A stretch of DNA of 64,000 bases from Octopus vulgaris (Eukaryota), in the NCBI GenBank assembly GCA_951406725.2, contig OX597824.1:11098001-11162000 (forward strand). Reading direction: 5' to 3'. Below are positions 17,412-44,992 of the stretch, one piece after another. The notes under the pieces are model-generated. The model had not been told where the DNA came from and did no database searches. It worked only from the letters and a program-made list of their open reading frames with translations. The position numbers and the translations under genes are program-made. How positions within the stretch are numbered: position 1 is the stretch's first letter; each line of letters starts with the position of its first letter.

Positions 17412-18860
17412 CATATATACGATGGGCTTCCTTCAGTTTCCGTCTACCAAATCCACTCACAAGGTTTTGGTTGGCCTGAGGCTATAGTAGAAGACACTTG
17501 CCCAAGGTACCACTCAGTGGGACTGAACCTGGAACCATGTGGTTGGTAAGCAAACTACTTACCACACAGCCACTCCTGCATCGAATTTCTAAACACTGCA
17601 CAAAATTACAGCATATTCTGATTCTGCAGTCTTGATGATAATGACAGCTGTTTCTAATTTAAGCACAATTAATAATGAGACATCTTCCTAAGATCAACTT
17701 TATTGTTTATATTGATTTCGAAGTCAATATAAAAACAAGAGTTAATCTCAGGGAGATTTGAACTCAGAGCAAAGAATAACAACAAATGACATTGTTTTTA
17801 GTAGTTTAATAATACAATCTTTAAGAAAAGTCAAAAAAAAAAAGGAATGTAGTTAGAAATAGTTTTCTTCTGTCAAATGAAGAGAATATTACACAGCAGC
17901 TAGACCAGTATCTTCTACTGGCCTGTTCGTTGTCCCTTAAGGTGAGACAGTGAACAGGTAAGTTTGTCTGGTTAGTAAAAAATGTATGGTGAACATAACA
18001 GAACAAAGATCATATCTCCAGATAAACAGTATTTAAAAAAAACAACAATTACTATAATGAATGATTTCTAAGATAGGCACATGGCCACATTTTTTGGTGG
18101 GGAAAGGATCGGTTGATTAAGTAAACTCCAGTGCTTGACCGGTGTTTGTTGAATCGATCCTGAATGGATGAAATGCGAAGTTGATATCGGCAGCATTCGA
18201 ACTCAGAAAGTAAAGAGGAAATGCAAGTTAGCATCACAAATCGTCTTTTTTCTGTTGCTCTACTAGTTCTGCGACCCACCGTCTCAAACAACTATAAATT
18301 CTCCTTCCAATCACATTCTACCATCTCGAAAAAAAGAAAGACAAAAAAAAAATGAATTGGACAATGTACCCTAGATATAGAAAACAAACAGGATAGCCAT
18401 AAATAGAATGTTTTTGACCATAGGCCTGTCTGATCATTTAAGGGCCTAGGGCTAAATGACAACAACTGATGATAATAAAAATACAAATATTCTCAATAAG
18501 TTAAGATATGAAAATCTCCAACAATGTAAAGTAGAAAAATGATTACGACAAATCTGTGTTTAAAATGTCTCAAACCATTGACCAAGTGAACGGTAAATGG
18601 TTTGTCAGCTTATTGTGGAGAGTGACTGATGGAAAACAAGTGAAATACAAACTTCCCGTTACTTCGAGGGAAGTTCTGTGATTTTCTTTGCAAGATCATT
18701 CTGTATAATTAGTAAAAGTGACAGGGTGACTAAACAAGAACAACATTTTATATTCCTAGAACATGCAATGTTATTTTTTCACAAAAACACATACATATAT
18801 CTGATAACTGTGTCATCAACATGTATGAATGTACAAGACACACAAAAAACAGACATTAAA

Positions 18861-18948
18861 TTAAAGTTCTTCTTTAGTTTTGTCAATCCACTTCTTCATT
18901 GAGTGAATATCTTTGTTAATTTCCTCGGTGTCGTGGAATGGCAATGCA
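18861..18948 (-). CDS. HRC-like gene terminal exon (S-ALPFHDTEEINKDIHSMKKWIDKTKEEL*)
   Basis: Acceptor tttctttcttccag, phase 2 start, TAA at 18863-18861, KDEL-type KEEL terminus. Confidence 0.93.
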
Positions 18949-21900
18949 CTGGAAGAAAGAAAAAAAGAGAAAAAATATTGATAATTTCAGTTTATATGTA
19001 TTTTTTTTTCAACCATGGAATAACTTAATAAACTTTTGGATAATTTTCAACTATGAAAAAAAGAAAATGAAAAACTGCTTTCATATAACAAGCAAGTCTC
19101 CCTCCAATCACAGCCTCCTCTCTTAAAAAACAACAACAACAAAAAAAATACCCATTGTACTGTGTAGTCGCAGATATAAAAAGATAAGATGGTTAATTAG
19201 TTTACAACCGGAATACCTTTGATCATAAATCTGCATGATCAAGGCTGACTTGAGGTTAAGCATCAGGTATAATTGAGTACTTTGAAAGAATTATCTCTCT
19301 ATATATATAAAGCTGAAGTTGTCAGTGTATTGCAGGTTTGGTAGCCTTCAACTAACACTATCTCCTCTGAAACCCTGCGGCACAAGTTGACCAAAATTGA
19401 GAGTATGATAGAAGAAGGCTTGCTCTTCCTTCCGCAGAAGAAAAAAAATTCAAATTGGACCATGTTAACAAAAAGGTGCTTTTTTTCTATGAAAATCCCT
19501 ATTTTTTACGATTTTTTGACTGCTGTGTTGCCATTTTTTGGTGTATTTCAACCAGAAAAATGTTCACCTAAAGAGAATAACAAGCTACATAATGCAAAAT
19601 TTTTACTTTTCAAAAATTCCAATTCTAAAGGGTCGAAAGGAAAACAAGCCCAAGCAACACTGGGCTATACTGCTAGTGGTAGATAAAAACATATTAAGAT
19701 TAACTAACTTTCACTTCACAAAAGAAAACCTCCTGAATGGTATTTCACTATCTCAGCAAGCTAAATTATAGCTTGTTGCGAATTTTAGGGAGAGAATCAT
19801 TATCATCATCATTTAACATCCATTTCCTATGCTGGCATCTGTTGAGTGGTTAGACAGGAGCTGGCTAGCCAGAGGACTGTATCAAGCTGTTTATTTTTAC
19901 ATAGCTTCGGATCTTTTCAGTTTGAACGGCAGTTTTTAACATAATTTCTAGGTAACTAAAAAATTTTAAACCTCGTATACTGGTAGAACGTGTTAATAAA
20001 ACATCTTTTTCTCTTGGCTTTATTGAGAAAATTCTATAGTTTGTAAGATATTTGTTGTTTTTTTTCCTTCAATTTCTGCAATTTCAACCAATCACTGACG
20101 TCTATTGAGGTAAAAAAACATTCTGTGCCATATGAATATGTCCCTCGTTTAAGAAACAGATTAGGTTTATTTACATTTGTGATGAAAAAAGATACCCTTC
20201 CCCTAACCCTAACCCTAAAACAAATTGAAATGCAATAGATCGATACTAGGGTCATAATTATGGGTGACAATTTCATATGACATAGAGGCTAATCAACTCC
20301 CCTTTATATTTGATGAGTACATTTGACAACAGTAAGATGTGAACTCAGATTAATATGGCAAGAACCTGACTCAACTCTGACTGGTTATGTTCATACAAAG
20401 CCACAAATTTTAGAGGAATGGGTCTAATCAACAAACTAACTCCAGTACATGACGAGGTAGTTTCTTCGACTTTCTGTCAAGTTGTCTGTCTTCTGTTGTG
20501 CATAAACAGTACAGATGGCAGTGTGTATAGGATATCAGTAACAAAGAATAATGCCCCATAATGGAGTGTGAATGAACTGTTACTCATCATCCTCGTAATC
20601 ATCTATTAATGTCCATGTTGACATGGGTTGACATGATCTAACATGTCTGAGAACTGCATCTTGCTCTAATGTCTGCTGTGGTATGGTTTCTATGACTGGA
20701 TGCCCTTCGTAATATCAACTACTCAATAGATTGTAGGTGTTTTTTTTCATAGCACCAACACTTGGGAGGTCATCATGAATCTTGCAACACTAAGATACTC
20801 CTTGGCAGTGTGAGACTACAATAGAGGAAGGCAGCTTTGAATCAGGAGATGAGAAGTTTAGGTATGAAAGAAGAGACCAGAACAGAGCAGGTTCCTTGCT
20901 TTAGAGGAGCTACATGGCTAAAATAAGAAACTTGAAGCAACAAATACTTCTTGGCTTTCTAAGAAAATCTATATCTCATTGAAGCATTCACTGTTGGAAA
21001 AAGTTATGAAATTAAGGTTTCCAGGTGAGGTCAGTGGAGATGATCTCTGAAAAGTGTGGAAGGAGGATCTATTTCAGGTTTATGATGTGTTCCAGCATTC
21101 CTTGTAGTAAATATGTAATGCCATTAAACATTGAGATCCTATGGAATAATGATAAAAAAAAACAGCAAAAAACTTATGTAACCCCGAGGTAGCTATGAAT
21201 CAGCAATCCTATGGCATACAAGTAGGCCCAACCCACAGAACTCTTTCAGATATATTATGTCTTTACCTAGCTAAAGAAAATACTTATTTCTTTATTGCCC
21301 ACAAGGGGCTAAACATAGAGAGGACAAACAAGGACAAACAAAGAGATTAAGTCAATTACATCGACCCCAGTGTGTAACTGGTACTTAATTTATTGACCCC
21401 GAAAGGATGAAAGGCAAAGTCGACCTTGGCGGAATTGAACTCAGACTGTAGCAGCAGACGAAATACCACTAAGCATTTCGTCCGGCGTGCTAACGATTCT
21501 GCCAGCTCACCAGCTAAAGAAAATACTGTGCACTCTGGATATTATTCAATATATTTTTGTATGCTTGTCAATTGTGATGATAACCACAGTGGAGGTGGGC
21601 AAGGTGGACTCAGATTGTTATAGTTTGTTTTACCATAAATCCTTGACTGTTAAGAGCAATGGATTATCTGGTACAAGTCCTGGTGTAAAGATTTAAGGAA
21701 AAGAATATGGTATAGTGCTACTGGTAATTAACATTGAGATAATGAGGGAGTTGACAAATCTATGAGAAATTTAGAGTTAATGGAGGTGTGGGGTTGGGTG
21801 GCTGAATGGGTCACAGGTAACATCTCTCTATATATAAATGGCAAAATGCGTGTGTGTGTGTCCTTTATACAAATCCCCAATTTTTCAGTTAGAGGGCTCG

Positions 21901-24900
21901 CACTTTCTATGGTCATTCAAAACCGTCCAAGGGTGGTCGTGCACATCTTTACATTTCCCCAGTCACCCCGCAAAGCCATTAAAAAATCAATAGAAGTGAC
22001 TGTTTTGTGAATTTTCTATCCAAAACCCAATCAAAATGCATGAAACTAGATATGCCAATTGAATGCCAGCTAGCTGTATGTAATTGGTCGGAGATTTGGA
22101 CAGTACTTGCGTGTATGTGTGCACGCATGCAGCTGTATATGCATGCACTAGCACTATGACCCGGCGTTGCCGGGTCATAGTGCTAGTAAATGAATAAATC
22201 AGAAATGTTCTGAATCCATCAGGAGTAAAAAAAAAAAACAAAAACAAAAACAAAACAAATAGTGAAAGTAAGACAAAACACTCTTATGTATTAATTTTAA
22301 AAGAGGGAACAGGTGGTGCCACCACTTAACAATTTGTGTTCATTAAAATAAATAAAATGCAAAATATTTACCTGATGATAGCAGCTGATACTTTATCAAC
22401 ATATCCACCTGAGAAAAAAATACAGAAATGATCAGTAAAAATATATGACAAGGATTATAATATTATTTCTTTATATATTTATATTGGCTTCAAATTTTGG
22501 CACAAAGCCAGCAATTTCAGGGGAGGGGGTAAGTTGATTATATCGACTCCAGTGCTCAACTGGTATTTATTTCACTGACCCTGAATGGATGGAAGGCAAT
22601 GTCAACCTTGGTAACATTTTAAGTAAAGACAGATGAAATACTGCTAAGCATTTTGCCTGGTATAATAACAATTCTGTCAGCTCACCACCTTATTTTCTTC
22701 TTCAAAGCATCCACTTGTTACAAGGTCCTTAGACCACTGAAAACATAAGAGCTACTAGAATAAAATGGACGCTAGACAGAAGGCAATAGGTGACGATGTA
22801 CATTAGACTTAAAAAAACTGGAGGTCATATTGAAGAGGAAAACAAGACTGTGGAAGGGAATTCCAAAGTTCAGAGGTGTAAGGGAAGAAACTGGTACTGT
22901 GAAGTGCTTTACGGCACTTAGGAGGTAGCACAGTATACCTTATAAAGTTATAAAACGTAACATCATCCTTTTCAAGCCTAGCCAGGCTCATGGGCCCGTC
23001 TTCTGTGGCATATGTGTTCCCCCCAGCTGGACGGGACGCCAGTCCATCGCAGTGTTATTCAAGAAACAGGAAGAGAGAGCGAGAGAAAGTTGTGGCGAAA
23101 TAGTACAACAGGGGTCGCCAGCACCCCCTGCCAGAGCCTCATGGAGCTTTAGGTGTTTTCACTCAATAAACACACAACGCCTGGTTTGGGAATCAAAACC
23201 GCGATCCTCCAACCGTGAGTCCACTGCCCTAACCACTGGGCCATTGCACCTCCTTATACAGTTATATTAAAAGCTATTTCCATCAGTACTTATACTCTCT
23301 TTTCTCTTTTACTTGTTTCAGTCATTTGACTGCGGCCATGCTGGAGCACCACCTTTAATCGACAACTCGACCCTGGGACTTATTCTTTTTGTAAGCCTAG
23401 TACTTATTCTATCGGTCTCTTTTGCCGAACCGCTAAGTAACGGGGACAGAAACACACCAGCATCGGTTGTCAAGCAATGCTAGGGGGACAAACACAGACA
23501 CACACATGCATATATATACATATATACGACGGGCTTCTTTTCAGTTTCTGTCTACAAAATCCACTCACAAGGCTTTGGTCGGCCCAAGGCTATAATAGAA
23601 GACACTTGTCCAAGGTGCCACGCAGTGGGACTGAACCCGGAACCTTGTGGTTGGTAAACAAGCTACTTACCACACAGCCACTCCTGCTATTATATACTAA
23701 TATATAAGACTAAGATTACAATGTTATTCCTTCGTATATTTATAAGTAAAAACTACAATCTGTGAGCATCGTTTCTAATAAAGGAAGTCATCAACTATTG
23801 ACATGGAACTTAATTCTCAGCTCAGTAGAAATCCAGTTTATCTCTATTTGCATTGGCAATGAATTGAATGAACAAGATAATTTCAGCATTTCAAGGAAAG
23901 AATTCACAGTTGAATGCATTTCAGCAAACACCAGCCATGGAACCATTAAGTCAAACTGGTATTATTACACAGACTATCATGTTAGTAGTATAAAGCAATT
24001 TCTTTTAAGTCTACAAATTATCATTTCACATTCCAAGGAGACACATATCTGACAACCTTCACCACTTAGTCTGGAATATAATTATCTTACAGCATATTTT
24101 GAGATAATTAAGTTTGATTAACGTTAATTTCGAACTTGCCCAGGCAAGATTTTCAAGAACCTACAGGATATTACTGTTTCATCTTTTGTAAAGTTATAAA
24201 GATTACATGCAGTAATCTAAGCAACAAGTGAATTAGACAAAAGCTATTATGAAAAAGCAATCAAAATAATTATGACTTTTATAATAGAACATCTCTCTTT
24301 CTGTCAACATCTCATCAAACAAGAGAATGGTTTATATTTATCTCGGATTACAGCAGCAGGCAAAGTAGAAATTACATGTCTAAAATTTCTTATCGTCAAA
24401 AATTTCAAGTACTTATACAATCTTATGTTAAATGAGCACATTTGTTCCATAATGGTCAATTACTTATTACAAGGCACAATAGAACTTCAGCTTGCTTAAG
24501 TTCATCGTCATCATCATCATTTAATGTCCGCTTTCCATTTGACTGAGGACTGGCAAACCAGATGGCTGCACCAGACTCCAATCTGATCTGGCAGAGTTTC
24601 TACAGCTTGATGCCCTTACTAACGCCAACCACTCCGAGAGTGTAGTGGGTGTTTTTATGTGCCACCAGCACGGGGGCCAGTTTGGTGGTACTGGCAACGG
24701 CCACGCCCAAATGGTACTTTTTACATGCCACCTGCACAAGAGCCAGTCCAGTAGCACTGGCGACAACCTCGCTCGAATATTTCACATGCCACCAGCACAA
24801 GTGCCAGTAAAGTGACGCAGTAATGATCATGCTCGAATGGTGTGCTTATCGTGCCATCAGCATGAAGGCCAGCTTGTTGCTCTGGCAACGATCTCACTCA

Positions 24901-27900
24901 TATGGTACTCTTAGTGCTGCACTAGCAACGGATGCCAGTCTAAGACATATACTCAATAAAAACATTACTTATATCCCATCAGTGTTATAGATAGGAGCAC
25001 TACACAGTGAGTATTCTATATTAGTATGTTGGGCTCAAATCTTCCCCTGGATCACAGAGATATCATTCATATCACTTGAAGCTTTTTTTAAAATATATTT
25101 TCCTTGAGCCATAGGACTCATAAGGCTGGTTGCTCAGTTCCCATGATGTATAAATGACTGAGATCACAACATCCTCCCTTGATTAGGATGCAGATCTTTT
25201 GCAGGGTGCAAGGCTAGTAATTTTGAAGGAAAGGGACAAATTGATTACATCAACCCCAGTACTTGACTGGTACTATATTTCAATGACCCTGAAAAGAGGA
25301 ATGGCAAAGTTGACCATGGCAGGATTTGAACTCAGAACTTAAAGAGCTGGAAGAAGTATCACTAAGTACTTTGTCTGACATGCTAACAATTCTGCCAGAT
25401 TTCTGACTCAATTGTTGTATCTAAGACATTAAAAATAATATTATGAAGATTCTAATTTAACATCCTGCCAAAGATTTGGTCATTCAGAATATGGGATATA
25501 CAATATTGATTTCTAGCAGTGACACAAGGCCTGAGCTTTTTAGAAAAGACACTCGATGGAAGTGACCCCAGTATATTACTGTCAATCAACTTATGGTTAA
25601 CTTAATCATCACCATCAGAGTAGACAAAAAAACAGAGTGATGCCTTTCGTTTCTGAAAGGCTGTCAATTAAGAAAACTTTTAATAAACCACCCTTAATCA
25701 TACTTCAGGATGAAAAGTTGAAAATATCTTACCAGGTTTACAGAAGGTGTCACAGACAGCTGAACAAAGATAGCAGTATTTACAATACTGAAAGTGAAAA
25801 AAAAAAGCATCATTATTACATCAATTTTCACCATACAACATCACCATTTTAATTCTTTCTACTGGAATTCTTGGGGAGGGGGCTAGTTAATTACTGGTAC
25901 TCAAATTGTATTTACTTTACTGACCCTGAAAGGATGAAAGGCAAAGTCAGCCTCAATTAAATTTGAACTTGGAACATTAATTCTTTTAATACCAACCTTC
26001 TAAAGCCCCTACTTAAATAAAAATTTTGATGAAATTCATAGAAATATTACAAGATTTCAGTTGATCAATACTAGCACTGATATATAAAATTAGAGATTTT
26101 ATTTTAAAAAAATCTTGATTCTGTTGAAAACATAGGCAGTCTATTCATTAGAAATATAAAATCAACAAGAGTTAAGACCATTCTTCATACCAGACTTTGC
26201 AGCAGCTATAGAGTCTCTCCAGACTTCAAAAAGTGAGCAAATTCAACTGATTACACTAGTCTGATTTCATCATCATCATCATCGTCTAATGTCCGCTTTC
26301 CATGCTAGCATGGGTTGGACGGTTCAACTGGGGTCTGAGAAGCCAGGAGGCTGCACCAGGCTCCAGTCTGATCTGGCAGTGTTTCTACAGCTAGATGCCC
26401 TTCCTAACGCCAACCACTCAGTGAGTGTAGTGAGTGCTTTTTACGTGCCACCGGCACAGGGGCCAGAGGAGGCTGGCAAACGGCCACGATCGGTTGGTGT
26501 TTTTACGTGTCACCGACACGGACGCCAGTCAGGCGGTGCTGGCATCTGCTACGTTTGGACGGTGCCAACAATTCTATTTGGATATTTGTTCCAGCTTTAA
26601 GCCACTATTTTGAATGAAAATCAAAATACAACACATTAATTTTATACTTGAGGTAAAATCTGGTGGTACCAATAGAAACTGTTTTACTTACTTTACACAT
26701 TTCGCAATTGGGTTTCTGAGGAGATACTAAACAGGGGCAGTCTTTATCACAGAGGCTGCAGAACTGAAACAGAAATAGAATCGGGATTTTATTTCATTTC
26801 ACATAGCTAAGATAATACAAAAATTCTGTTTTTAAGTTTTTACTTACTCGACGAAACATAGCTTATACAGTAAAGTGATTTACTATCAGCAATACTGAAT
26901 ACAAAGATTTTGATTAAAATGTAGTGAACTGATATAATTCAATATGAAAACAATTTTTGTTTGTCTAGGCACAGAGCCAGTAACAGAAAGTGCAAAATAT
27001 TTCATTGAGAAATTTTTGTGAATGGTCCTCCTAGGCTTACAAATGACATTTGTAGAAGGGAAATTAATGAGGGTGGTGTAAGCAAAGTTATGTTCGCAGT
27101 TAATCCAGTGAGAAATATAAATAATAATGGAATTATTGTATACAGTGCTCAGGTGCACCACAACTTGTCAAAAGTGCGTATAAAGCATATGCAGTAATGT
27201 ACAAATGTCTGGAAAGCGAACAGTGTATGAGTCAGATACATGCTTGCATGTGTATGGAGGGGAGAAAATCAAGTGTAGTGTTGGCAAATCTCAGGAAGCA
27301 TGGAAGTTTTGAAGGATGCAGTGCTCTGACAACTAACAACTGATGCTGGCAGTTTGTTCCATGCTTCAGCAACTCTTAGCGTGAAAAAATGTTTCAGAAA
27401 GTCATGGGAGCTGTGCTGTTTTCTGACTTTGTAAATATGTCCACGGGTTTTAGACAGGTGGAATTTGAAAAGGTGCTCAGAGTTATTGTTTGTAAGATGG
27501 TTTGTAATTTTATGGGTGTCTGCCAAGTCAGCTGCCAGACATCGGTATTCAGATTACTGTTTCAAATATAATGCTTATGATTTCACATTATTTTCAATTA
27601 ATCATGCATTACTTCATAGCTTTCAGATTTTGATGATGAGATTGTTTATTTTCAAAATGACTTTGTAGGGTAGGTATGAAAGGCCAGATATGACAATTTT
27701 GAAGATAAAACAAGTAGAATATTTTGGCTGGATATGGCTGGTTTAAATGCCAAAGGGTTAAAGAGGTGATTCTATTCACTGCAGTCCTTGAAACTATGGC
27801 ACAGGAATTCAGGACTGGCCATTTTGGGAAATGTCTGAATATTTATAACCTTATACTGAAAACAGTCAAAATGTTGCATAAAAAGTTCTCTACTCAGAAG

Positions 27901-30522: not shown

Positions 30523-30577
<55 letters not shown>

Positions 30578-33500
30578 ATGTTTATGAGTCTGTGTTTGTT
30601 CCCTCAACATCGCTTAACAACCGATGCTGGTGTGTTTGTGTCCCTGTAACTTAGCAGTTCGGCAAAAGAGACAGATAGAATAAGTACTTGGCTTACAAAG
30701 AACAAGTCCTGGGGTTGATTTGCTTGTCTAAAGGTGGTGCTCCAGCATGGCCGCAGTCAAATGACTGAAGCAGAGTCTGAAATTTTGGGTGAGTGGTCAA
30801 GTTGATTACATCGACCCTAGTGCTCTGCTGGTACTTATTTCTATCAACCTTGAAGGGATGACAGGCAAAAATCAACCTTGGCAGAATCTGAACTCAGAAT
30901 GGAAAGCAAGAAGAAATGCCACTAAGAATTTTGTCTTGCATGCTAATGAATCTACCAGTTTGCTGTCTGAACGATGGACAGAATTTGTCGAGGCAGATTT
31001 TTCTACAGCTGGATGCCCTTCCTGTTGCTAACCCTCATCTGTTTTCCAAACAAGGCAATACTTTTCCCATAGGAAAATATGTTTTACTTGAAAAACTGGA
31101 AACGAGCAACTTCAACTTGGCAGACAATGATACTCATTTACAACTATTATGTGATATCTAGATAAAGGCACACGAAAACATAAATACACACATATATGAC
31201 AGGCTTCTTTCAGTTTTGGTCTAGTAAATCCACCTTGGTCAACTCAAGGTTATAGTAGAAGTTTATCCAAGGTGCTGTGTAGTGGGACAGAACCCAAGAA
31301 CACATGGTTGAGAAGCAAGCTTTTTAACCACACAGCAGTTTAACCCTTTCATGTTCAGATTACTCTGTTAATTGTAATGCTTTTTCACTCAAATTGTTTT
31401 GAATTAATCCTGCATTATCTCACAGCTTTGAGGTTTCAATGATGTGATTATTTATTTTTAGAATGTCAATGTAGGTTAGGTGTGAGAGGTTGGATATGGC
31501 TAGTTCAAATATAAAACATGTAGAATATTTTGGGCTGGATGTGGCCGGATTAAACACTAAAGGGTTAAACCAACAGCCACTCTGCTTCATGTTCCCTCTT
31601 CTCTGTTAGAAGGCACAAGCACTTACACCCACATGTACACACATGACAGAAACTTCTGCCTAGCAAAATCAATCGCCAAAGGCTATAGCATAAAACACTT
31701 GCCCAAGGTGCCACGTGTCTTAAATTCAATGAAACAGCTTTGACTATCATAATTCTTAAATGTCATCCAGAGAGACCTGCTGTCACAATATTTTATGTAT
31801 GGGATGTTACAAACAAAGTAGAAAAAATATGAGGCCAGATGAAAAAATATGCATGCATGTACATACATACATGTGTGTGTGTACATACATACATTTTCCC
31901 AGCAAGAAAATATCTCTTAAAGTTTCTGTCTTTCTTAAACTTCTTCCAGGAAACCTTGACATAATTTACTTCATTACATTTTCCAAAGCATTTTAATTTA
32001 TTTTAGCATTGTAAAGCTCCATAAAATAAGCTGACAGTTGGAGTTTGGACAGCTCCCGGTTAGCCAACTCATATATATCTTAATTTTCTTCCAAGAATGT
32101 AAATTAATTTACTCTTTTACTTGTTTCAGTCATTTGACTGTGGCCATGCTGGAGCACCGCCTTGAGTCGAGCAAATTGACCCCAGGAATTATTCTTTGTA
32201 AGCCTAGTACTTATTCTATCGGTATCTTTTGCTGAACTTCTAAGTTACAGGGACATAAACATACCAGCATCGGTTGTCAAGCGATGTTGAGGGGACAAAC
32301 ACAGACACACAAACACATAAACACACACACACATATATATACATATACACGACGGGCTTCTTTCAGTTTCCTCTACCAAATCCACTCGCAAGTCTTTGGT
32401 CAGCCCGAGGCTATAGTAGAAGACACTTGCCCAAGGTGCCATGCAGTGGGACTGAACCTGGAACCATGTGGTTCGTAATCAAGTTACTTACCACACAGCC
32501 ACTCCTATGCCTAGTGAAATTTAGTGAAATTAATTTTTAAAAATTATTTCCTCTTTCTGCAAGCTGCTAAGAATTATCTTATGTTTCAGTTATTGGAATG
32601 TGGCCAAGCTGGGGCAACACTTTGAAGGGTTTTAGTTGAACAAATCAACCCCAGTACTTATATTTTAAAGCCTGGTACTTAATCTATTAGTCACTGTTGT
32701 CAAACTGATAAGTTATGGGGACATCAACAAACCAACAATGGTTGTGTATGCATGTATATATCCAATGGGTGTCTTTCAGGTTCTGTCTACTACATCCACT
32801 CAGGTGGCTTGGGTTGATAGAAGATACTTGCCAAAAGTGCCATGCAGTGGGACTGAACCTGAAATCATGTGGTTGGGAAGCAAGCTTCTTATCACACAAC
32901 CATGCCCACTTGTTTATTTATTTATATTTTACTCAATTAAGAGGAAGATTTGAATTGAGAAGGATCTTTAGCATGCACCATTCAGTATATCAGTCCATAA
33001 CTTATTTACTTAAAATCAAGCCAATGGTCCACTTGAGTGATTTCCCTTGGTTAATAATATTTTGAATTATATACACACACCTCCACACTGAAAGGATAGA
33101 TTTATAAAAGACTTCAGTTCAATCCTGTATCAAGTTAGTTTCAGCAGTATATATATTTATTAGAACTGATAACAAAATCATAGTTTGATTTCATGAGAGA
33201 CAACCTACTAAGTGATTATTAGACTTTTTCCATGCAGGAAAAGTTTAAAACTTCTTAAGGGAGTCAATATAGGTTCTTTCTGATCATGGACATAGATAAC
33301 ATTGACCAATTACTGCAGCAGCGACAGGAAATTCTGCACAAAGTTATTGTAATATTTCCAATGACATCTCAATTGTTTTTAATTGGTTTTTTTTTCGTAA
33401 GCCAGTCAAACACACACTTGAAACTTGACCACCTTGCTGTATCAAATCCACAAGCTGCCTACTTGTTGTTTAACTAGCTAGAAAATAGCAGCCACTAAAA

Positions 33501-36500
33501 CCATACCCTACCATTTCAGACAAGTCTGGTTCCACTTAAAAAGCACCTGTGCTGGTGCTGCATTAATGCACCCGTGTCAGTGCAGCATAAATGCAGTCAT
33601 ACTGGTGACACATAGAAAACACCTATCATACTCTGTTAAGTGGTTGGTTCTAGAAAGGGCATCCAGCCGTAGAAACCTTGCCACACAACAGATAGTTGGA
33701 GTCAGGACAGCTCCCTGCTAACCACCTCCATGTCAAACCATCCGACCCATGGAAAGCAGACATTAAGCGATGATGATGATGATGAGACGTGATGGCGAAT
33801 ATGGTCCTGGGTTTGTGTGAAGGGAAAAGAGGGGATGGTCATATCTGGAATACCTTTGATCACAAATCTACTTGATCAGGGCTAACCTAATATTAACCCT
33901 TTAGGATTCAGATTATTCTGTCGAATGCAATGTTTATTTATTCAAATTGTTTTGAATTAATCATGTGTTATCTCGGAGCTTGGAGATTTTAAGGCTGTGT
34001 GGTTAGGGAGCTTGCTTCCTAGCTATATGGTTTCGGGTTCAGACCCACTGCGTGGCACTTTGGGCAGGTGTCGTCTGCTATAGCCCCGAGCCGACCGAAG
34101 CTTTGTGATTGAATTCGGCAGGCGGAAGTTACTGCCATGTGCGTGTAGGTGCTTGTACCTCTCCGAAAGAGAGAGAGGATTGTTTATTTTAGGATGACAT
34201 TGTAGCATAGGTGTGAGAGGCCAGATCTTGTTACTTTTGACATAAAATAGGTAATATATTTGGGCTGGATATGGCTGGTTTAAATGCTAAAGGGTTAAAC
34301 AAGAACTTACCACTTAGTTTCTCAAATATAGCTGGGGATAAAATATTAGATCTCAAGAGGGTGTACGGGTAGATTTCAACCACTAAATGACTGTGTACCT
34401 TATGTTTCCAGACCTCTGAATGAGGATAGCTCATATAAAGGAGTGGTTTACTTATTAAACATTCACTGCTGCCCACCACTATAGAAGTTATGTATTTTCT
34501 CTCCAAGACCTACTCTGATTACACAAAACCACTACAGCAAACAAGCAGGCATTTTGACACTCATAACTGGTAAATACTTATTTCTTTACTACCCACAAGG
34601 GGCTAAACACAGAGAGGACAAACAAGGACAGACAAACGGATTAAGTCGATTATATTGACCCCAGTGCGTAACTGGTACTTAATTTATCGACCCCCGAAAG
34701 GATGAAAGGCAAAGTCAACCTCGGCGGAATTTGAACTCAGAACGAAACGGCAGACGAAATACCGCTTAGCATTTCGCCCGGCGTGCTAACGTTTCTGCCA
34801 GCAAGCCACCTTATAACTGGTAAATACTGAAGGACCAAACCTAGAAGCTGCAGATCTATTATATTGATATTTGTCTAGACTGACCCCAACCTCAATCATC
34901 TCTCCTCCAGCAATTGTAGAACACTTCAACCTTTAACCTACTTCTCCCAAATTTACCACTGCCAGTTTTTTTTTGGTCCTTTTTTTTTATTATTATTATA
35001 TCAATTTCAATCAATGAGATTGAAAGGCTGTTGGCTTTGGCACCCAGACATTTGTAATCTATTAAACAAAGAAGCATTGTTTTGAATTTGATCCAGAACA
35101 CGTATGATTCAGGAAAGTGTATATAAGAAACAGAAAAATTCAGTTGTTAAAAAGAAGCACATTTCTTTTACATCGACCACCAAACACATACAGGAGTACC
35201 GATGTAAAAATATAAATACTTATTGAGATCAAATAAGTTTAGAATGTTTGCTCCCTAAATTTTTCTAACAAATCTTACCAACTATCTTCATGTAGTCGTC
35301 TATCATTCTCTCTCTCTTCTATTATGTCTTCCTCTTATCTATATCTCTCTTGTTCTAATTCTCTTTCGTCACTCACTATATTTCTGCCAAGAATGAGATA
35401 TCATAGAGTAACCTTACTATGGGCAAGGTAACCCCTCTAGTGCTGGAGTCACAATAAAATGTCTTGTCTACATTTTGTAAAGTGACTGGCAATAGGAAGA
35501 GTATCCAGCCATATTACACTATGCCAAAAATAGAATATACAAGTGAGATGTCTTTGACGCGTCTAAGGGAGCAGTAATTCTAAATAAGAAGTGACGTAGA
35601 CAGTGAGGATTGTTGTGAACATCTCTATGCCAACATAGAAAAAGACCACAAAGATGGCACTATGTTCTCTCTCTCTCTCTCACACACACGGATAGAGATT
35701 AATAGTGATACCATTGAGAACTTAGAATTAAACTGCTGGAGTAAGAAAAAGTTCTTTCTTATTAGAGAAGTGTAACACACACACACAGATATTAGTAAAT
35801 ATGCATGGAATTGAAATAATTCGAGTTAATTCTACAGTTAAAATACTTCTTCAAAAACCCAAAATGTTAGTAAAAAAAAAAAAAACAACACAGATCTACA
35901 TTAAACTTTCTAATTAGAGATGATACAGTGTCATGGATTACACAAAAGTTGTTACCAAAACATATATTTTGATAAACTTTTCATGTTTTAAATTAATTTT
36001 GTTTTCATCTTTTAGTCAAGGAGAAAGGTATTCTAGCCTGTGTTTTGGAAACAACTGGATTCCACTAAAGATATCCAACATGCCAAGTGATGGTGAACTA
36101 CTCTACATCAATCATCATCATCATCATTGTTTAACGTCCGTTTTACGTGCTAGCACGGGTTGGATGGTTCGACCGGGGTCTGGGAAGCAAGAAGGCTGCA
36201 CCAGGCTCCAGTCTGATCTGGCAGTGTTTCTACAGCTGGATGCCCTTCCTAACACCAACCACTCCGTGAGTGTAGTGGGTGCTTTTTATGTGCCACCGGC
36301 ACAGGTGCCAGGGGAGGCTGGCAATGGCCATGATCAGTTGGTGCTTTTTACATGCCACCTGCACAGAAGCCAGTCAAGGCGGTGCTGGCAGCGTCCACGA
36401 TCGGTTGGTGCTTTTTACATGCCGTCGGCACAGGGATCACAACTACAATTTCCATTTGATATTTTTTTTTATGTTGATCAAATTACTTCCAGTTTATTAT

Positions 36501-38018
36501 CTGTCAGTAATTTTGACGATATTGACAACTTTGGCAATATTTTGATGACAAAAATTAAAAACCCATTAATATGGTACCCCAATACAAACATGTTTTATAA
36601 AGCAAAACTGCCAAAATAATAATCCTTTCTACTATAGGCACAAGGCCTGAAATTTTTGGAAGGTGGGGGCTAGTCGATTACAGGTACTTGTTTTATTGAC
36701 CTCAAAGGAATGAAAGGAAAAGTCAGCCGTGGTGTAATTTGAACTCAGAATGTAAAGACGACAGATGAAATGCCACGAAGCATTTTGCCTGGTGTGCCAA
36801 CGATTCTACCAGCTTACTGCCTTACTGACCCAAATAATAATAATCTTCCAATTTCAGAAACTACTTTCATTGGTTTTTTAATTAAAAAAAAAAAAAAAAA
36901 AACTGATTTCAGTAATCCCTGTAATTAGCTTTATCTTTCTTAATTGTAAATTCACACCATGGTGTTAACACACATAATGCAAGGACCATTAAAAAGGTAA
37001 CTTGAAATAATTATGCATGGAGGAAAACAACACCCAAACAACATTAGTCAGCGACTAATATTATTTTAGGTAAATTGGGAAAAATGTGAGTCAACTCTGG
37101 ACATGTCCTAATCTTATTATGACCTCATTAGCATGACACAGATTTCAGTGTGCATGCTAAAAAAAATGGTGCAAGTATTAGTAAATAAATGTATAAGTTT
37201 GTACACCAAGTGATATAGAAAAAGCTGTTTGTTTAGCATTATATTTGTTTTCTTTTTAACTTTTTTTTTGAGATGAGAAATCAATAAAGTACATGAATTC
37301 CACACCTATAAATTGAAAGCCTTGTCTCTAATCTATCTGTATTATCATTATATTTTGGAAAGAAGTAATCATTAAAAAGTGAGAATATTCTCTCTATGTC
37401 TTGCTGTTAAAGAAATCTAGTTGTCAATGATGTAGCATTTTATTCTTTTACTTGTTTCAGTCATTTGACTGTGGCCATGCTGGAGCACCGCCTTTAGTCA
37501 AATCAAATCAACCCCAGGACTTGTTCTTTGTAAGCCTAGTACTTATTCTATCAGTCTCTTTTGTCAAACCACTAAGTTATATATATATATATATATGTAT
37601 ACATGATGGGCTTCTTTCAGTTTCTGTCTACCAAATCCACTCACAAGGCTTTGGTCGGCCCGAGGCTATAGAAGAAGACACTTGCACAAGGTGCCATGCA
37701 GTGGGACTGAACCTGGAACCATGTTGTTCATAAGCAAGCTACTTACCACACAGCCACTCCTATATATATATGTGTGTGTGTGTGTATGAGTTGTCTAAGA
37801 GACCATAAGTCAGGGAAAAGATGGAAACATAGTAGAATGGGTATATTATCCAAAATGTATAGTATTAAATATCCTCCATGGCTGGTCTTACCAATTGCTT
37901 TCGTGTAAAGAACACAAAGGAATCAGTCTGTTACCTAACACTCCATTGTATTCTTTATGCAAAACCGATTGGTAGGACCAGCCACGTGATGGATATTTAA
38001 TACTATACATTTCAGATA

Positions 38019-38082
<64 letters not shown>

Positions 38083-38586
38083 TCATCATCGTTTAACGTC
38101 CGTTTTCCGTGCTAGCACGGGTTGGACGGTTCCACCGGGGTCTGGGAAGCCAGGGGCTGCACCAGGCTCCAGTCTGATCTGGCAGTGTTTCTACAGCTGG
38201 ATGCCCTTCCTAATGCCAACCACTCCGCGAGTGTAGTATATATATATATATATATATACACACACTTGTGCCATGCATCACCAAATTTGTATGGCAATAT
38301 CTGAACTTAAAAGACATGCTAGTTCGCAAAAAGATTCCTTCAGAATCAGATTCCAATGGGCAAAGATATAGAAAAAACTTGAATAATATCTGTTACTTGT
38401 GTTTTAAACCCAGTCAGTCAGCAGCTGGTCTTAAAAGTCATCTAAGGACTCATCAACGGAGTAATTGTGGTTTGTGTGTTGATGGGATGGCTATCATCTG
38501 TCAAGATGAAGCATCATCATATATATACATATATAGTCCAACCCATGCCAGCATGGAAGGCAGATGCTAAATGATGACGATGATGA

Positions 38587-38636
<50 letters not shown>

Positions 38637-41600
38637 CAGGTTTTTTCCAGTTTCCGTCTATGAAATCCACTCACAAGGCTTTGGTCGGCCCAAAACTATA
38701 GTAGAAGACACTTGCCCAAGTTGCCATGCAGTAGGACTGAATCTGAAACCATGTAGTTGGGAGGTAAACTTTTTGCCATGCAGCCATGCCAGCGCCTTAA
38801 TAATTTCAACTTAAACTAGTTATATTTGCTCAAAGAATTTCTTTTGCAAGAGGCAATAGCTACTTGATTAAAGAATGTGAATCATTCTCTCCAACCCTCA
38901 TCTAATATTGGAAGTTTTTTTTGGGGGGTGGTGGAACGGGGTAGTTAATGTTAAAGACAGAAACGACAGCAGTAATGCTCTCTCTCCACGCATAAATCAA
39001 TGAACGGTTGAAAGATGGTTGAAAGCTATGTTGAAGCCAATATTATTCCACATGTTTTGATCACATTGCAGTATTGTGCTGTATATCACACTGCATGTAA
39101 GGGTTTGGTGAGTGTATAAATCAGAAATGGACAGAAATCATTTAGATCAATGGTTCTCAACCATTTGTTTGCCAATGGATCTCTTTGATTCCTATTTTAC
39201 ACTACTGGACCCTCACAGCTATTCACCATACGTAAAAAGATCTTACTATGTTTTTATAATTATATATTATCAGGAATTAGGATCTTTTCGGTTTGAATGG
39301 CAATTTTTTCTAGCGGTGTCATATGAAATTGTCACCCATAATTATGACCCTAGTATCGATCTATTGCATTTCAATCTGTTTTAGGGTTAGGGTTAGTTAG
39401 GGTTAGGGTATCTTTTTTTCTTCACAAATGTAAATAAACCCAATCTGTTTCTTAAACGAGGGACATATTCATACGGCACAGAATGTTTTTTTACCTCAAT
39501 GGAGGTCATTGATTGGTTGAAATTGCAGAAAAAAAATAACAAATATCTTACAAACTATAGAATTTTCTCAAGAAAGCCAAGAGAAAAAGATATTTTATAA
39601 ACACATTCTACCAGTATACGAAGTTTAAAATTTTTTAGTTACCTAGAAATTATGTTAAAAAATGCCGTTCAAACCAAAAAGATCCAGGAATTGTATAAAA
39701 AAAATTAAAATAGTGTTTTGTAAAAGTATAACCAATCTATTGCACATAATAAAATCTTATATGGGTCCCAGTTGAAAATCAATGATTTAGATTATTTTTT
39801 ATGAGCAAGAGTCTAACTGATAAATAATGATGACTTCTAACTTGATCACAACTTCTTGAGGTAGAGGGTAATCGATCAAAGCGATACTAGTACTTATTTT
39901 ATAGACTCAAGTAAGAATTCAAGTCTCAGTCAATATTGGCGGAATTTGAAACCAACGCAAATAAATAAAATCGTAATATTGATTTCTAACAGACACAAGG
40001 TCTCGATCTGAAGGGGTAAATTCAATTATAATCAACCACAGTACTTGACCAGTATTAGGCGGAAAAAGGCGGCGAACTGGCAGAAACGTTAGCACGCCGG
40101 GCGAAATGCTTAGCGGTATTTTGTCTGCCGCTACGTTCTGAGTTCAAATTCCGCCGAGGTCGACTTTGCCTGTCATCTTTTCGAGGTCAATTAAATAAGA
40201 ACCAGTTATGTACCGGGGTCGATATAATCGACTTAATCTGTTTGTCTGTCCTTGTTTGTCCTCTCTGTGTTTAGCCCCTTGTGGGTAGTAAAGAAATAAG
40301 TATTAGTCGGAAATCAAAGTTGGCTTCGTCGGGATTTGAACTTAGAACGTAAAAAGGCAATAACTAAACACTGTAAGACAATCCATATTAGTTTCTTAAA
40401 GTTTAAGAGTGAATGAAGGGTATTGAAATAAGTTGATCGTCCTGCACGACGCCCCAAAGCCTGTGAATAGAAATACTGTGTTCCCGTAATCGGTGGTCGA
40501 AATTAGGTCGCCGGCATAGTTCGAAGGGTGCGTCTTTTTTCTGCACTGCGGCGTTCACCCAGGAACAGCCAAAAAAGCCAATATCGCAATATCGATGATG
40601 ATCGTTGTCATCAATCACCGCCGCGACGATTATTATTATTATTATAACCAGGCACCACCATCATCATCATCATCGCTTACATAACGTAATGCATGAAACA
40701 TCCCGTGTCTATAGGAATTTATTTAGGACACACACACATGCGCGAAAAGTAATTTAACAAATGTCAACGTTAATTGAAACATAAATAAAAAAAATGAGAA
40801 GGAAGTATCGGGACATAAATAGATTAGATCTGTTAAATGAATATATGCATGTGTATATATATATATATGTATGTTATGACAGCTTAAGTAAACTTGTAAA
40901 TATTGTTTGATGTTCTTTCTTATCTTGTTAGACACAGGTGAAAAAGAACCGATTGAAGTCGTTACAGATTGTTTCCAATTATTTTAAGGAGCGTCATAGT
41001 TTGAAAAGTAGATTACCGAATTTTTGGTCAGAGCTGATAACAAGATTTATGGCGAGATTAGGTTAGATATGGGGATCTGTATGTTATAAGATGAAGTTTA
41101 TAAAGAGGCATGGGAAGATTCATAGGGATCTAAAGGAATTTACAAGCCTGAAAGATGTTGAGGAATTTCAAGATTCGCAGAGAGATTTCATAAAAGGCCA
41201 AGTAATCAGGAATTGACATTTACAAAAGGAATTTAGAAACGAGGAACATGGTAGAATTTATCAACGGAATAAGATCTGCAGCATTTTGTAACATATTCAA
41301 ATATATAGATTTATGGGGTTTCTGATTTCTTTTTTTTTATACTAGGCACACAATCAAATTGATCGAGAGAAAAGCCTGCAATATTAGAGGTGCTTAATTT
41401 CATCGATCCAGCGGTATGTTATTGGTACTTTAATCGATTAGAATAGTATGACTTGTGGTTATTCCATCGACAGCAAGATATTATTGGTAAATTGTTTCAT
41501 CGGTACCAAATTGATGATGGCGGAATTCGAACACAAGAGATGGTTGTATTAAACTAAATAAAACACAGACAACAACAGAGGCGTTCTCAACCGTCATCGC

Positions 41601-42422
41601 CATTTCCAAAATCTCAAATGAATGAATTGACCAATTCCTTATACAGAAAACAGAACTGTTCTAATCTTATCTGCTTTTAATCCATTTTTTTTTTTGCGTA
41701 TGTCTCGGGTCTTTATAGTTTGTCCGGACAGTTAAGTTTTTAAAGGAAAAAAATAAGACACAGTCGTGATTTCAATAAATTTTAAACAGAAAAGTTGTTT
41801 CCCATGCTTTAACCAGTTCTTATAAATACAGAATGGTATTTCGGGGGGAAAATATCAAGTTATCAGTTAAGTGTGTTGAGAAATAAAATTACAAATTCTT
41901 ATATAAATAGATTATGATATCGTGAAGTAATGTTGCACAGTTTTAGGTAAATCGCATTTTATGTTTGGATAAGACTTGGCAGTGTCGACTTCCAAGAAGT
42001 TCCGGAATTTACAGGGAATCAATAAAAATGGGATCAGTGACAGGTTGAAGGAATGCGGTGAGGTGGGGGCGATGTTTGGACTAAAATAAACCTAATCAAG
42101 ACTAAAATAAACCTAATCTCGACTCATTGATAAAACCTGTCGAGATAGGACAGATAGGATAGATAGATGGATAGATAGAAGGATAGATATAACGAAGTGA
42201 AGGAAAGAGCTTTTATCGATCCTGGTTCGCACCTACCTTACAATATTCACAGTAGCCGCAAACTGAACCCCGAGCATATTCAATTTTTTCATCGTCTACT
42301 TGGACTTTTTCCGCTGTATCTTTTGCCTCCGAACTCTGTTCTTTCACATCGGCTTCGGCCTTAATTAGATTTAATAAACAAACCAAGAAGAGGAAACCTG
42401 CGACAAGATTGCGGGACAACAT
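18861..42422 (-). CDS. Spliced 5-exon gene: 145-aa ER-luminal cysteine-rich protein, HRC (sarcoplasmic reticulum histidine-rich calcium-binding protein) C-terminal-domain-like
   Basis: Exons of 186+72+55+37+88 = 438 nt join in frame with GT-AG introns: MLSRNLVAGFLFLVCLLNLIKAEADVKEQSSEAKDTAEKVQVDDEKIEYARGSVCGYCEYCKFCSLCDKDCPCLVSPQKPNCEMCKYCKYCYLCSAVCDTFCKPGGYVDKVSAAIISALPFHDTEEINKDIHSMKKWIDKTKEEL*. Hydrophobic N-terminus, 14 Cys, KEEL end. CGYC...CYLC...C.PG.YVD resembles HRC as I recall it. Confidence 0.93.
19294..19676 (+). mobile_element. Non-autonomous Helitron
   Basis: A|TC start, CTAG|T end, subterminal hairpin gcccaagcaacactgggc, no TSD. Confidence 0.8.
19909..20284. mobile_element. 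Truncated copy of a TIR element carrying (TTAGGG)n
   Basis: Reverse-complement match to 39280-39685; ccctaaccctaaccctaa at about 20201-20218. Confidence 0.82.
21823..22186 (+). mobile_element. Non-autonomous Helitron with extended terminal palindrome
   Basis: A|TCtctctatatataaa start, CTAG|T end, perfect 19-bp-arm hairpin 22147-22187. Confidence 0.8.
22372..22408 (-). CDS. HRC-like gene exon 4 (G-GYVDKVSAAII-S)
   Basis: Acceptor ttttttctcag, donor gtaaat, 37 nt, phase 1/2, compatible with both neighbours. Confidence 0.92.
22735..22945 (-). mobile_element. LINE 3' fragment (Jockey/CR1-group ORF2 end)
   Basis: Reads ...SFFPYTSELWNSLPQSCFPLQYDLQFF, a typical non-LTR ORF2 C-terminal motif (SFF..T..LWNSLP). 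Confidence 0.75.
23293..23688 (-). mobile_element. SINE family A, near full length, in intron 3
   Basis: Same head, body and tail as 176-660. Confidence 0.9.
25733..25787 (-). CDS. HRC-like gene exon 3 (YCKYCYLCSAVCDTFCKP-G)
   Basis: Acceptor ttttcactttcag, donor gtaaga, 55 nt, phase 0/1. Confidence 0.95.
26692..26763 (-). CDS. HRC-like gene exon 2 (FCSLCDKDCPCLVSPQKPNCEMCK)
   Basis: Acceptor ttctatttctgtttcag, donor gtaagt, 72 nt, phase 0/0; continues the CxxC periodicity. Confidence 0.95.
27120..27545 (-). mobile_element. CR1/L2-type LINE 3' fragment
   Basis: ORF 27269..27526: TRGHIYKV...FFTLRVAEAWNKLP; related to 44993-45442. Confidence 0.9.
29525..29925 (-). mobile_element. SINE family B dimer nested in a family A head
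   Basis: TSD caagcaa(g/a)cttctta; junction about 29709. Confidence 0.88.
30358..30770 (+). mobile_element. SINE family A
   Basis: Same sequence in plus orientation with internal (TA)n. Confidence 0.88.
31340..31568. mobile_element. piggyBac-type MITE (TTAA-CCCTTT...AAAGGG-TTAA)
   Basis: TTAA at both ends; related copies 57472-57701, 33893-34298 (SINE piece inside), partial 27545-27761. Confidence 0.82.
37842..38023. repeat. Fold-back with about 75-bp arms next to (TA)n, in intron 1
   Basis: aaatgtatagtattaaatatcc...tggctggtcttaccaat versus attggtaggaccagcca...ggatatttaatactatacattt. Confidence 0.88.
38268..38520 (+). mobile_element. RTE-type LINE 3' fragment with C-terminal C2H2 finger
   Basis: ICYLCFKPSQSAAGLKSHLRTH in ORF 38268..38570, followed by a short-repeat tail; no splice context. 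Confidence 0.65.
39148..39784. mobile_element. hAT (Charlie-like) MITE with nested insertion
   Basis: Termini caatggttctcaacc / gttgaaaatcaatg, 8-bp TSD atttagat; uninterrupted relative at 53587-53819 (TSD atgtagat/atgaagat). Confidence 0.82.
39280..39685. mobile_element. TIR element (GGATCTTTT...AAAAGATCC) with internal telomeric repeats
   Basis: About 22-bp TIRs, flanking duplication aggaatt(a/g), ttagggttagggttagttagggttaggg at about 39381-39408. Confidence 0.85.
42237..42422 (-). CDS. HRC-like gene coding exon 1 (aa 1-62: signal peptide, acidic linker, CGYCEYCK)
   Basis: ATG at 42422-42420; ends AAG|GTAGGT, phase 0; lies within ORF 42213..42452. Confidence 0.93.
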
Positions 42423-42549
42423 GCTTCCACGATGTTCCTCGGCAACTAACAACTGTCTAGTAGTACGGGGTTACCTCCCTTATCTTCTTTTTTTTTTTCA
42501 GCGCTTCACTGCGATGCTTGTGTTCAAGTGTTTAACCAGTGCCAGTTAA

Positions 42550-42568
42550 CGTGGGTTGATTCTATTGG
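42550..42568 (-). promoter_or_regulatory. ER stress response element (ERSE, CCAAT-N9-CCACG)
   Basis: Minus strand reads CCAAT agaatcaac CCACG with an exact 9-nt spacer, about 130 nt upstream of the ATG of the KEEL protein. Confidence 0.8.
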
Positions 42569-42592
42569 CTGCTATCTGGCACCTCGCCGAGC

Positions 42593-42599
42593 TGACTCA
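42593..42599. promoter_or_regulatory. AP-1-type site TGACTCA
   Basis: Exact 7-mer about 25 nt beyond the ERSE; a 7-mer alone is weak evidence. Confidence 0.3.
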
Positions 42600-44805: not shown

Positions 44806-44992
44806 AATAAATTTATTTTTGTTATTTAGCGGTTCATAATTGTTAGAAATTTCATACCTAGAATTATCAGAGAGAGAGAGAGAGGTGAGTGAATACAGAG
44901 ATTACAGTCTAGGTTTAACAAGAATTTTGCCAAAGTGCTTCATATATTTCGAGTTGTGAATGTAATTTCTAATTACTTTGGCATCAATGTTG

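Follow-up and report, generated by a model that had tools for sequence, protein, structure and literature searches.

On the minus strand of an Octopus vulgaris contig (OX597824.1), in the 64,000 nucleotides from position 11,098,001 to 11,162,000 that we call the window, lies a gene for a 145-aa protein. We read this protein as an ancestral-type relative of HRC that resides in the ER lumen and whose 14 cysteines would form a seven-disulfide hairpin, a stable binding module for the folding machinery. The probability of this reading is roughly one half. Its parts differ in strength and are given where their evidence is discussed.

Splicing of the window sequence joins five exons (Table 1) into a single ORF. 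The joined product, which the first-pass annotation had assembled from exon 1 and four small exons, is 100% identical to GenBank CAI9729702.1 (Octopus vulgaris), and differs by 1 aa from RefSeq XP_029643130.1, already named HRC, and by 6 aa from XP_014789142.1. Given these identities the exon joining is not due to chance, and the gene is real beyond reasonable doubt. It is not a new one, since RefSeq and GenBank already hold it under the HRC name. The four introns (15473, 904, 3324 and 3423 nt; phases 0, 0, 1 and 2) all have GT-AG borders and a pyrimidine tract, and the exon 1 donor is GTAGGT. Exon 1 is indeed the only exon detected as an ATG ORF (42213-42422), which is ordinary for a spliced gene; exon-1-type fragments with the same end point make up 56/148 search matches. 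No tRNA or Rfam match was found in the window.

Table 1. Features of the gene and its upstream region (positions in the window).
Feature	Position	Strand	Details
ER stress response element (ERSE), perfect CCAAT-N9-CCACG, putative	42550..42568	-	128 nt upstream of ATG, on the gene strand
TGAGTCAGC	42591..42599	-	next to the ERSE on its upstream side; 2 in the window vs 0.61 expected (weak)
Exon 1, coding part, 186 nt	42237..42422	-	signal peptide (~1-22), short acidic linker, C55-C61
Exon 2, 72 nt	26692..26763	-	C64-C73, CPC turn, loop, C82, C85
Exon 3, 55 nt	25733..25787	-	C88-C102
Exon 4, 37 nt	22372..22408	-	GG-x-x-D motif, predicted amphipathic helix 107-118
Exon 5, coding part, 88 nt including TAA stop	18861..18948	-	predicted helix 124-144, KEEL
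3' UTR, at least ~1 kb	17835..18860	-	contigs of 4 runs extend to 17834-17852

Read support for the splicing is indirect. In each of four runs (from four studies, presumed to be RNA) one contig spans the last exon and the 3' UTR, its alignment ends exactly at the acceptor at 18948, and the depth of the exon 2 bin matches 72 nt of that contig. Beyond the acceptor these contigs carry 366-511 letters, compared with 350 coding nt in exons 1-4. We call the support indirect because the 15 rows shown include no junction rows, 569 are hidden by repeats, and intron 1 lies beyond the aligned stretch. The 3' UTR length is a lower bound because a repeat adjoins its far side.

The cysteines of the joined product fall at exactly the 14 positions first annotated (55, 58, 61, 64, 67, 71, 73 and 82, 85, 88, 91, 94, 98, 102) and make up both CxxCxxCxxCxxCxxxC runs; a further one, C15, is within the signal peptide. 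All 14 are invariant in 22 close relatives. The Cys core is neutral and aromatic-rich, with Tyr/Phe recurring at every third position. The protein has 2 His overall and none in its 32-aa linker (10 D/E, one S-x-E site), so the reported lack of a His-rich region holds. The N-terminus has the character of a signal sequence (hydropathy 2.35-2.49 at residues 5-19, peak 2.49; predicted helix 2-24). The protein matched no family in Pfam or NCBIfam, and a thioredoxin domain with a CxxC active site is absent by both Pfam and the structure model, which is all helical.

A profile search found 209 proteins at E<=0.001 among 1.84 billion, with similarity to vertebrate HRC-like proteins at E 3.6e-18 for P0040. 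In a two-sequence comparison the octopus protein is 47% identical over 68 aa (E 4e-22) to the His-rich tortoise HRC-like protein XP_032624441.1, and in octopus and vertebrate HRC-like proteins a GG/GS-x-x-D helix follows the 14-Cys domain. The octopus protein is thus, on sequence similarity, almost certainly an HRC homolog, and the kinship with the HRC C-terminus pointed to in the first-pass annotation is borne out. The family also reaches beyond animals, a point absent from that annotation. Named members include a tortoise, a newt, two fishes, two sponges, Chloroparvula and Pelomyxa, and short forms (signal peptide, 14 Cys, xDEL/xEL) occur in molluscs, an annelid, cnidarians, sponges, Pelomyxa and a green alga, as well as in ~45 further sequences without an organism name. 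Long acidic expansions recur in the invertebrate-type members L011, L012, P0034 and P0042. Longer forms of 654-2000 aa were found in 0/5342 candidates, which is weak evidence; mammalian HRC was not among the sequences compared. The ESM Atlas gave one lead at 0.83, named HRC, and nothing for P0048. In the main texts of largely open-access papers we found no study of the short forms. Candidates rejected as generic CxxC repeats or unrelated comprised 8 viral, 3 prokaryotic and 2 metagenome loci (L013, L014), and L024 had no frame with three CxxCxxC matches.

The tree was built on 80 rows, with near-duplicates and faulty or truncated models omitted (P0001, P0002, P0005, P0008, P0009, P0012, P0014, P0020, P0026, P0065, P0074, P0133 and P0171-P0174). 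Animals fall on one side of a branch in 996/1000 bootstraps, and the vertebrate HRC-like proteins nest among the short animal forms. Of the non-animal-side proteins looked up, 2/13 carry an organism name. Because vertebrates nest inside short animal forms and short forms also occur outside animals, the short form is very probably ancestral to the HRC family, as had been proposed for the stand-alone domain. Vertebrates would then have drawn out the acidic linker into Ca2+-binding His/acidic repeats; the ER tail would have disappeared, and the core would have turned acidic and become the docking site for triadin. The non-animal look-alikes might instead be convergent CxxC repeats, with the family confined to animals and the short form either reduced or ancestral within Metazoa alone. 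Repeats of the generic (CxY)n type also come through the same searches, as the rejected loci show, most non-animal rows are unnamed, and a transcriptome record can be contaminated. Convergence is nonetheless quite improbable: the non-animal-side rows have a fixed 7+7 Cys count, a CPC in 46/48, a signal-like N-terminus in 46/48 and an ER-type tail in 36/48. Similarity extends to the Cys-free tail, which for Pelomyxa scores 15.9 bits where shuffles reach at most 8.4. The tail alone exceeds the 99th percentile of shuffles in 21/48 non-animal-side and 5/5 vertebrate rows, scores with an upward bias, since the profile used to find these rows itself covered the tail.

The ER-retention tail first noted in the octopus protein is conserved across its relatives. 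Tails ending in EL, DL or YL are present in 25/26 invertebrate-type rows, besides the non-animal-side rows just counted, and in 0/5 vertebrate rows; a strict PROSITE-type tail occurs in 13, 15 and 0 rows, respectively. Among 77 complete rows, near-duplicates counted, the tails are KDEL in 22, KEEL in 4, RDEL in 3 and HDEL in 3. KEEL is described as a known but somewhat leaky retrieval signal (PMC7506106, PMC8276033). The octopus protein combines a signal peptide with this conserved C-terminal motif, as KDEL-type residents do, and is very likely located in the ER lumen. It would be imported through its signal peptide and then retrieved by the KDEL receptor via KEEL.

Cysteine losses in the family are informative on pairing. 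Cys are missing in 10/80 rows: seven lack positions 3 and 12 (C61 and C94), two lack positions 2 and 13 (C58 and C98), and one, P0044, lacks a single Cys (C64 to W). Thus 9/10 Cys-losing relatives have lost mirror pairs, and the chance of both loss types being mirror pairs is 0.006-0.02. The Cys lost in pairs become Ala, Thr, Val, Lys or Arg, never His, Asp or Glu, and every paired loss sits in non-animal-side rows. The position-2 loss in P0073 is inferred because its N-terminus is cut. Automatic loss calls in P0035, P0078 and P0115 proved to be spacing variants with all 14 Cys present, and an apparent third loss in P0097 was likewise a matter of spacing; P0031 (C61 to A, second run missing) is uninformative for the count. 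When the trait columns are masked, at least 3 changes are needed to explain the loss of 3+12 in 1000/1000 bootstraps; without masking, one origin is compatible with the AU test (p=0.26). Covariation of non-Cys columns gave no antiparallel signal (p=0.56) and no parallel-register signal.

AlphaFold with 71 sequences predicts a helix (54-70), a turn and a second helix (80-98), with core pLDDT 85-91 and pTM 0.51; with 22 sequences the pLDDT was 52. A homodimer prediction for residues 46-145 without an alignment was uninformative (score 0.01). No fold match was found in PDB Foldseek, VIA-wide (best Z 2.6) or BFVD, which does not in itself show the fold to be novel. Together, the mirror-paired losses and the predicted helical hairpin favour a nested ladder of seven disulfides over a metal site, and we consider such a ladder probable. 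Run 1 (C55-C73) would double back onto run 2 (C82-C102) and pair each Cys i with Cys 15-i, giving the predicted rungs 55-102, 58-98, 61-94, 64-91, 67-88, 71-85 and 73-82. The evidence covers two of these rungs, and the other five are extrapolated.

The cysteines could alternatively bind Zn, Cu or Cd as ER thiolate clusters, as has been proposed for HRC, with a role in metal buffering or delivery. This reading, also put forward in the first-pass annotation, is disfavoured by the exact pairing of the losses and by their replacement with non-ligand residues. A site deprived of two of its four ligands would be left with orphan Cys, the ER lumen is oxidising, and no metal-response element was found in 42200-43100; we regard metal binding as unlikely. 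The stretch C61-x2-C64-x2-C67-x3-C71-P also resembles a ferredoxin-type 4Fe-4S site, and a PDB sequence search gave weak ferredoxin-motif matches to NuoI and FwdF (best E 0.032 over 29 residues) and no solved relative of the HRC 14-Cys domain. An iron-sulfur site is extremely improbable, as C61 is missing in seven relatives, the spacing is often x2 rather than x3, the protein has a signal peptide and an ER tail, and the Foldseek and VIA rows contain no ferredoxin fold.

A luminal redox or Ca2+ sensor is about as doubtful as the metal reading. Some rungs would open and close, and the protein would regulate SERCA or release channels as HRC does, without a Ca2+ store. The Cys-rich domain of HRC (aa 609-699) binds triadin in a Ca2+-dependent manner (PMC6171002), and the acidic linker with its S-x-E site and the recurrent acidic expansions would suit such a sensor. 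However, the His/Glu region to which SERCA binding of HRC maps (320-460; PMC6171002) is missing, the vertebrate core is acidic (-3 to -8) whereas the octopus core is neutral, the linker of non-animal members is almost without acidic residues (median 8% D/E), and rungs can be lost. The octopus protein lacks the parts of HRC to which Ca2+ and SERCA binding are ascribed, and judging from its sequence its role would lie in folding rather than in Ca2+ storage.

A link to folding is suggested by the upstream region and by one relative. The ERSE near the gene start, first spotted by eye, is the sole match in the 64 kb (0.04 expected per window). Against a promoter role, one contig would run through it; a look for it at further loci, mostly transcripts or unrelated, gave 0/25. 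The neighbouring TGAGTCAGC we take to be an AP-1/antioxidant-response-like site. The ERSE consensus follows PMC2821749. P0082 is a fusion of the 14-Cys domain with two thioredoxin domains of the PDI type and KDEL, and its best PDB match is TXNDC5 (E 1e-50); the fusion is known from one sequence without an organism name (2 contigs). The gene may be induced together with chaperones by ATF6/XBP1 at the ERSE, and the exposed Tyr/Phe stripe and the amphipathic helix could bind clients or a PDI-family partner. A folding-helper role is tentative, somewhat less likely than not. For the ER thiol redox role suggested earlier, the ERSE and the one fusion support a redox or folding context indirectly; the activity itself is conjectural.

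In its widest and rather speculative form, the finding would be an undescribed ER-lumen family that arose before animals, amoebae and green algae diverged, with a new seven-disulfide hairpin fold that acts as a UPR-induced PDI-type partner or client-binding module. Vertebrate HRC, a gene of cardiac arrhythmia, would be this module with Ca2+-binding repeats grafted on, and its triadin-binding domain a ladder, not a metal site. If the family is as old as it appears, a conserved ER component has no Pfam model and is mislabelled 'histidine-rich calcium-binding' in many genomes. Natural Cys variation yields a specific, testable disulfide pairing map, and at 145 aa the protein is far more tractable for structural work than the acidic HRC of 700 aa. 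Should the ordinary part alone hold, what remains is an octopus gene that is already annotated and whose name misleads.

The octopus protein shares with vertebrate HRC a signal peptide, an acidic stretch, the C-terminal 14-Cys CxxC cluster and the GG/GS-x-x-D helix. It differs in its size (145 aa vs ~700 aa), in a linker without His-rich/acidic tandem repeats or polyglutamate, and in an added C-terminal helix and KEEL. Short proteins named HRC in the databases, to three Octopus records of which our product is identical or nearly so, belong to the same family; their names are automatic transfers, and the records carry no Pfam or NCBIfam model. Plant TaHRC/StHRC share the name alone and are set apart by their description as having a calmodulin-binding motif and a nuclear signal (PMC9701806). 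With the PDI family (TXNDC5/ERp46, PDIA4) the octopus protein has in common a signal peptide and a retrieval tail, KEEL being paralleled in ERp29, but it has no thioredoxin domain and its CxxC motifs are predicted to be structural rungs. Two antiparallel helices with nested i to n-i disulfides are found in the twin CX9C/CHCH proteins and the alpha-hairpinins. The same nesting is predicted here; the fold searches gave no structural match (best Z 2.6), and the octopus hairpin would differ from these in having seven rungs at three-residue spacing.

All five exons of the octopus gene were found when the minus strand was searched for AG-exon-GT blocks (see the table). Joined, they encode a 145 aa protein with two histidines, a cysteine in the signal peptide (C15), the 14 domain cysteines at the places given in the first-pass annotation, and a C-terminal KEEL. 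The gene, which is real and already in databases, is missing from the ORF track because it is spliced, and splicing alone explains the invisibility noted earlier. Read support for the splicing is indirect. In 4/4 sequencing runs, whose RNA label is a guess, a contig spans 17835-18948 and no longer aligns beyond the acceptor, the same contigs extend 366-511 letters past it versus 350 nt for exons 1-4, and read depth in the exon 2 bin agrees with 72 nt; read rows spanning the junctions were masked by repeats.

Coding exons and possibly repeat-derived frames in the window
Feature	Position	Strand	Basis
Exon 1, coding	42422-42237	-	AG-exon-GT block search
Exon 2	26763-26692	-	AG-exon-GT block search
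Exon 3	25787-25733	-	AG-exon-GT block search
Exon 4	22408-22372	-	AG-exon-GT block search
Exon 5, coding	18948-18861	-	AG-exon-GT block search
Short frame	44893-45372	+	Likeness to C-terminal tail of LINE reverse transcriptase
Short frame, intron 1	27272-27553	-	Likeness to C-terminal tail of LINE reverse transcriptase
Short frame	about 16957-17230	-	Likeness to C-terminal tail of LINE reverse transcriptase
Short frame, intron 3	22809-22991	-	Likeness to C-terminal tail of LINE reverse transcriptase
Frame with single C2H2-like finger, intron 1	38214-38567	+	Weak Pfam scores, E 0.03-0.07
Frame like Mariner-type transposase fragment	49409-49741	-	Likeness to Mariner-type transposase

The composition of the window is octopus-like (37% GC), with abundant microsatellites and dispersed repeats. 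Repeats shared within the window make up 35% of the locus and none overlaps an exon. The four short frames resemble LINE reverse transcriptase tails and the frame at 49409-49741 a Mariner-type transposase fragment; a Pfam scan of two of the former and of the latter gave no match. The C2H2-like frame is probably a retroelement remnant. CpG observed/expected is 0.8-1.5 across 40001-42500, a stretch that takes in exon 1 and the adjoining 5' part of intron 1, versus about 0.5 on both flanks.

A single-sequence search returned 20 proteins, including those of molluscs, an annelid and cnidarians, with 14/14 cysteines invariant. A profile search of 1.84 billion representatives gave 209 matches at E<=0.001, 150 of them listed; among the matches listed are tortoise, newt, Takifugu, Denticeps, the sponges Sycon and Corticium, the amoebozoan Pelomyxa and the green alga Chloroparvula. 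Mammalian HRC was not among the proteins recovered, and the link to HRC runs via the reptile, amphibian and fish proteins. The tortoise relative (322 aa) has 28 histidines N-terminal to the Cys domain and shares 47% identity with the octopus protein across 68 aa, and the layout agrees with the account of HRC in PMC6171002. Judged by homology, the octopus protein is a member of the HRC Cys-domain family, and the similarity to the HRC C-terminus that the first-pass annotation pointed out is upheld. Pfam and NCBIfam hold no model for this family.

Generic CxxC repeats can also pass such searches, and we therefore examined other features of the rows lying across the tree branch from animals. CPC and a signal-like N-terminus each occur in 46/48 of them, and an EL/DL/YL C-terminus in 36/48. 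A Cys-free profile of the animal tail scored above the 99th percentile of shuffles in 21/48 of these rows and 5/5 vertebrate rows, a count biased upward by row selection. That the non-animal rows are convergent look-alikes is improbable. Look-alikes do exist: loci L013 and L014 were rejected as a 9-bp tandem repeat whose translation, (CKY)n, mimics the domain, and phage loci L015-L017:808-2180 as three tandem genes that have no relation to the family, each with a conserved N-terminal domain and a CxYCxYC-rich tail. Viral proteins at L018-L022, around 2000, carry 13-30 consecutive CxxC repeats.

On the 80- and 78-row trees a single branch sets animals apart from the other rows (98/100; 996/1000 bootstraps), and within the short invertebrate forms the five vertebrate rows make up one clade; these trees have few columns, a midpoint root and a long vertebrate branch. 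The Cys domain starts just after the signal peptide in non-animal rows (median 28 residues), and invertebrates have an extra acidic linker before it (median 56). The ER tail occurs in 0/5 vertebrate rows, some of whose models may have faulty ends, and the vertebrate Cys core is acidic. From the nesting, the linker lengths and the tail loss, the short, tailed form is therefore likely the ancestor of the family, as the first-pass annotation proposed; taking the non-animal rows at face value, it would predate animals. Long acidic extensions occur in several places in the family (e.g., the 570-aa L011). L011:1-1722 and L012:1-880, which are of invertebrate type, have very long Glu-rich repeat N-termini, the 14-Cys domain and a KEDL end, an HRC-like architecture apparently reached separately from that of vertebrates. 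Octopus residues 30-32 (42333-42325) are S-S-E in the acidic linker, a Fam20C-type site; by raw count, S-x-E occurs at that place in 18/29 animal rows.

Cysteines are lost in 10/80 rows. The 3rd and 12th (octopus C61, C94) are absent together in seven, the 2nd and 13th (C58, C98) in two, one of which (P0073) is cut there and half inferred, and C64 alone in one. Substitutes are Ala, Thr, Val, Lys and Arg. In both lost pairs the two positions mirror each other, i against 15-i in order along the domain (chance of two such pair types, 0.006-0.02). Loss of the 3rd and 12th needs 2-4 changes on 1000/1000 bootstrap trees and 3-6 once the trait columns are masked, two or more of them being required by strong branches; on the unmasked tree an AU test did not reject a single origin (p=0.26). 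AlphaFold (71 sequences) predicts helices at 54-70 and 80-98 joined by a turn, and two more helices, with core pLDDT 85-91 and pTM 0.51. Together, the mirror-pair losses and the predicted hairpin suggest an antiparallel helical hairpin with seven nested disulfides, of which two rungs come from the data and five from symmetry. The single loss of C64 and the lack of any covariation signal among non-Cys columns count against this ladder. Fold searches gave no match, a result that carries little weight in either direction.

A role in ER protein folding is hinted at by three features: the tail, an ERSE and a PDI-type fusion. The octopus KEEL is KDEL in most close relatives; KEEL is a known but leaky retrieval signal (PMC7506106, PMC8276033). 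A cnidarian/sponge-type group (P0021, P0025, P0029, P0032-P0035, P0042, L007, L009, L010) has a conserved K-E/S/D-Y-L end, not KDEL, possibly a variant signal. A perfect ERSE, first spotted by eye, occupies 42550-42568 on the same strand as the gene and is the sole match in 64 kb versus 0.04 expected. The element drives mammalian GRP78, GRP94 and calreticulin (PMC2821749), and we assume that molluscs use it. In one relative, P0082, the 14-Cys domain is fused to two PDI-type thioredoxin domains ending in KDEL. Tyr/Phe is conserved at each third position, and this stripe and the amphipathic helix 107-118 would form a binding surface. The explanation we prefer is an ER binding module, stabilised by disulfides and induced by stress, which would assist the folding machinery, a picture to which, as a whole, we give a probability of about 0.5. 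The helper role taken alone is tentative. Of the rival readings, metal binding by the Cys domain is unlikely, as is a part in controlling Ca2+ pumps or channels of the ER, and an Fe-S site at the Cys motif is barely credible.

The octopus gene itself is ordinary and annotated. We found no study of the short forms in the literature searched, mostly non-subscription papers, among which PMC9026860, PMC4757803, PMC7581897 and PMC9701806 were also consulted. A testable case about this domain, which is uncharacterised and occurs in a cardiac protein, can be built on its deep range, the pairing map and the ERSE. Unlike HRC proper, the octopus protein has no His-rich repeats, and therefore the database name HRC misdescribes it.
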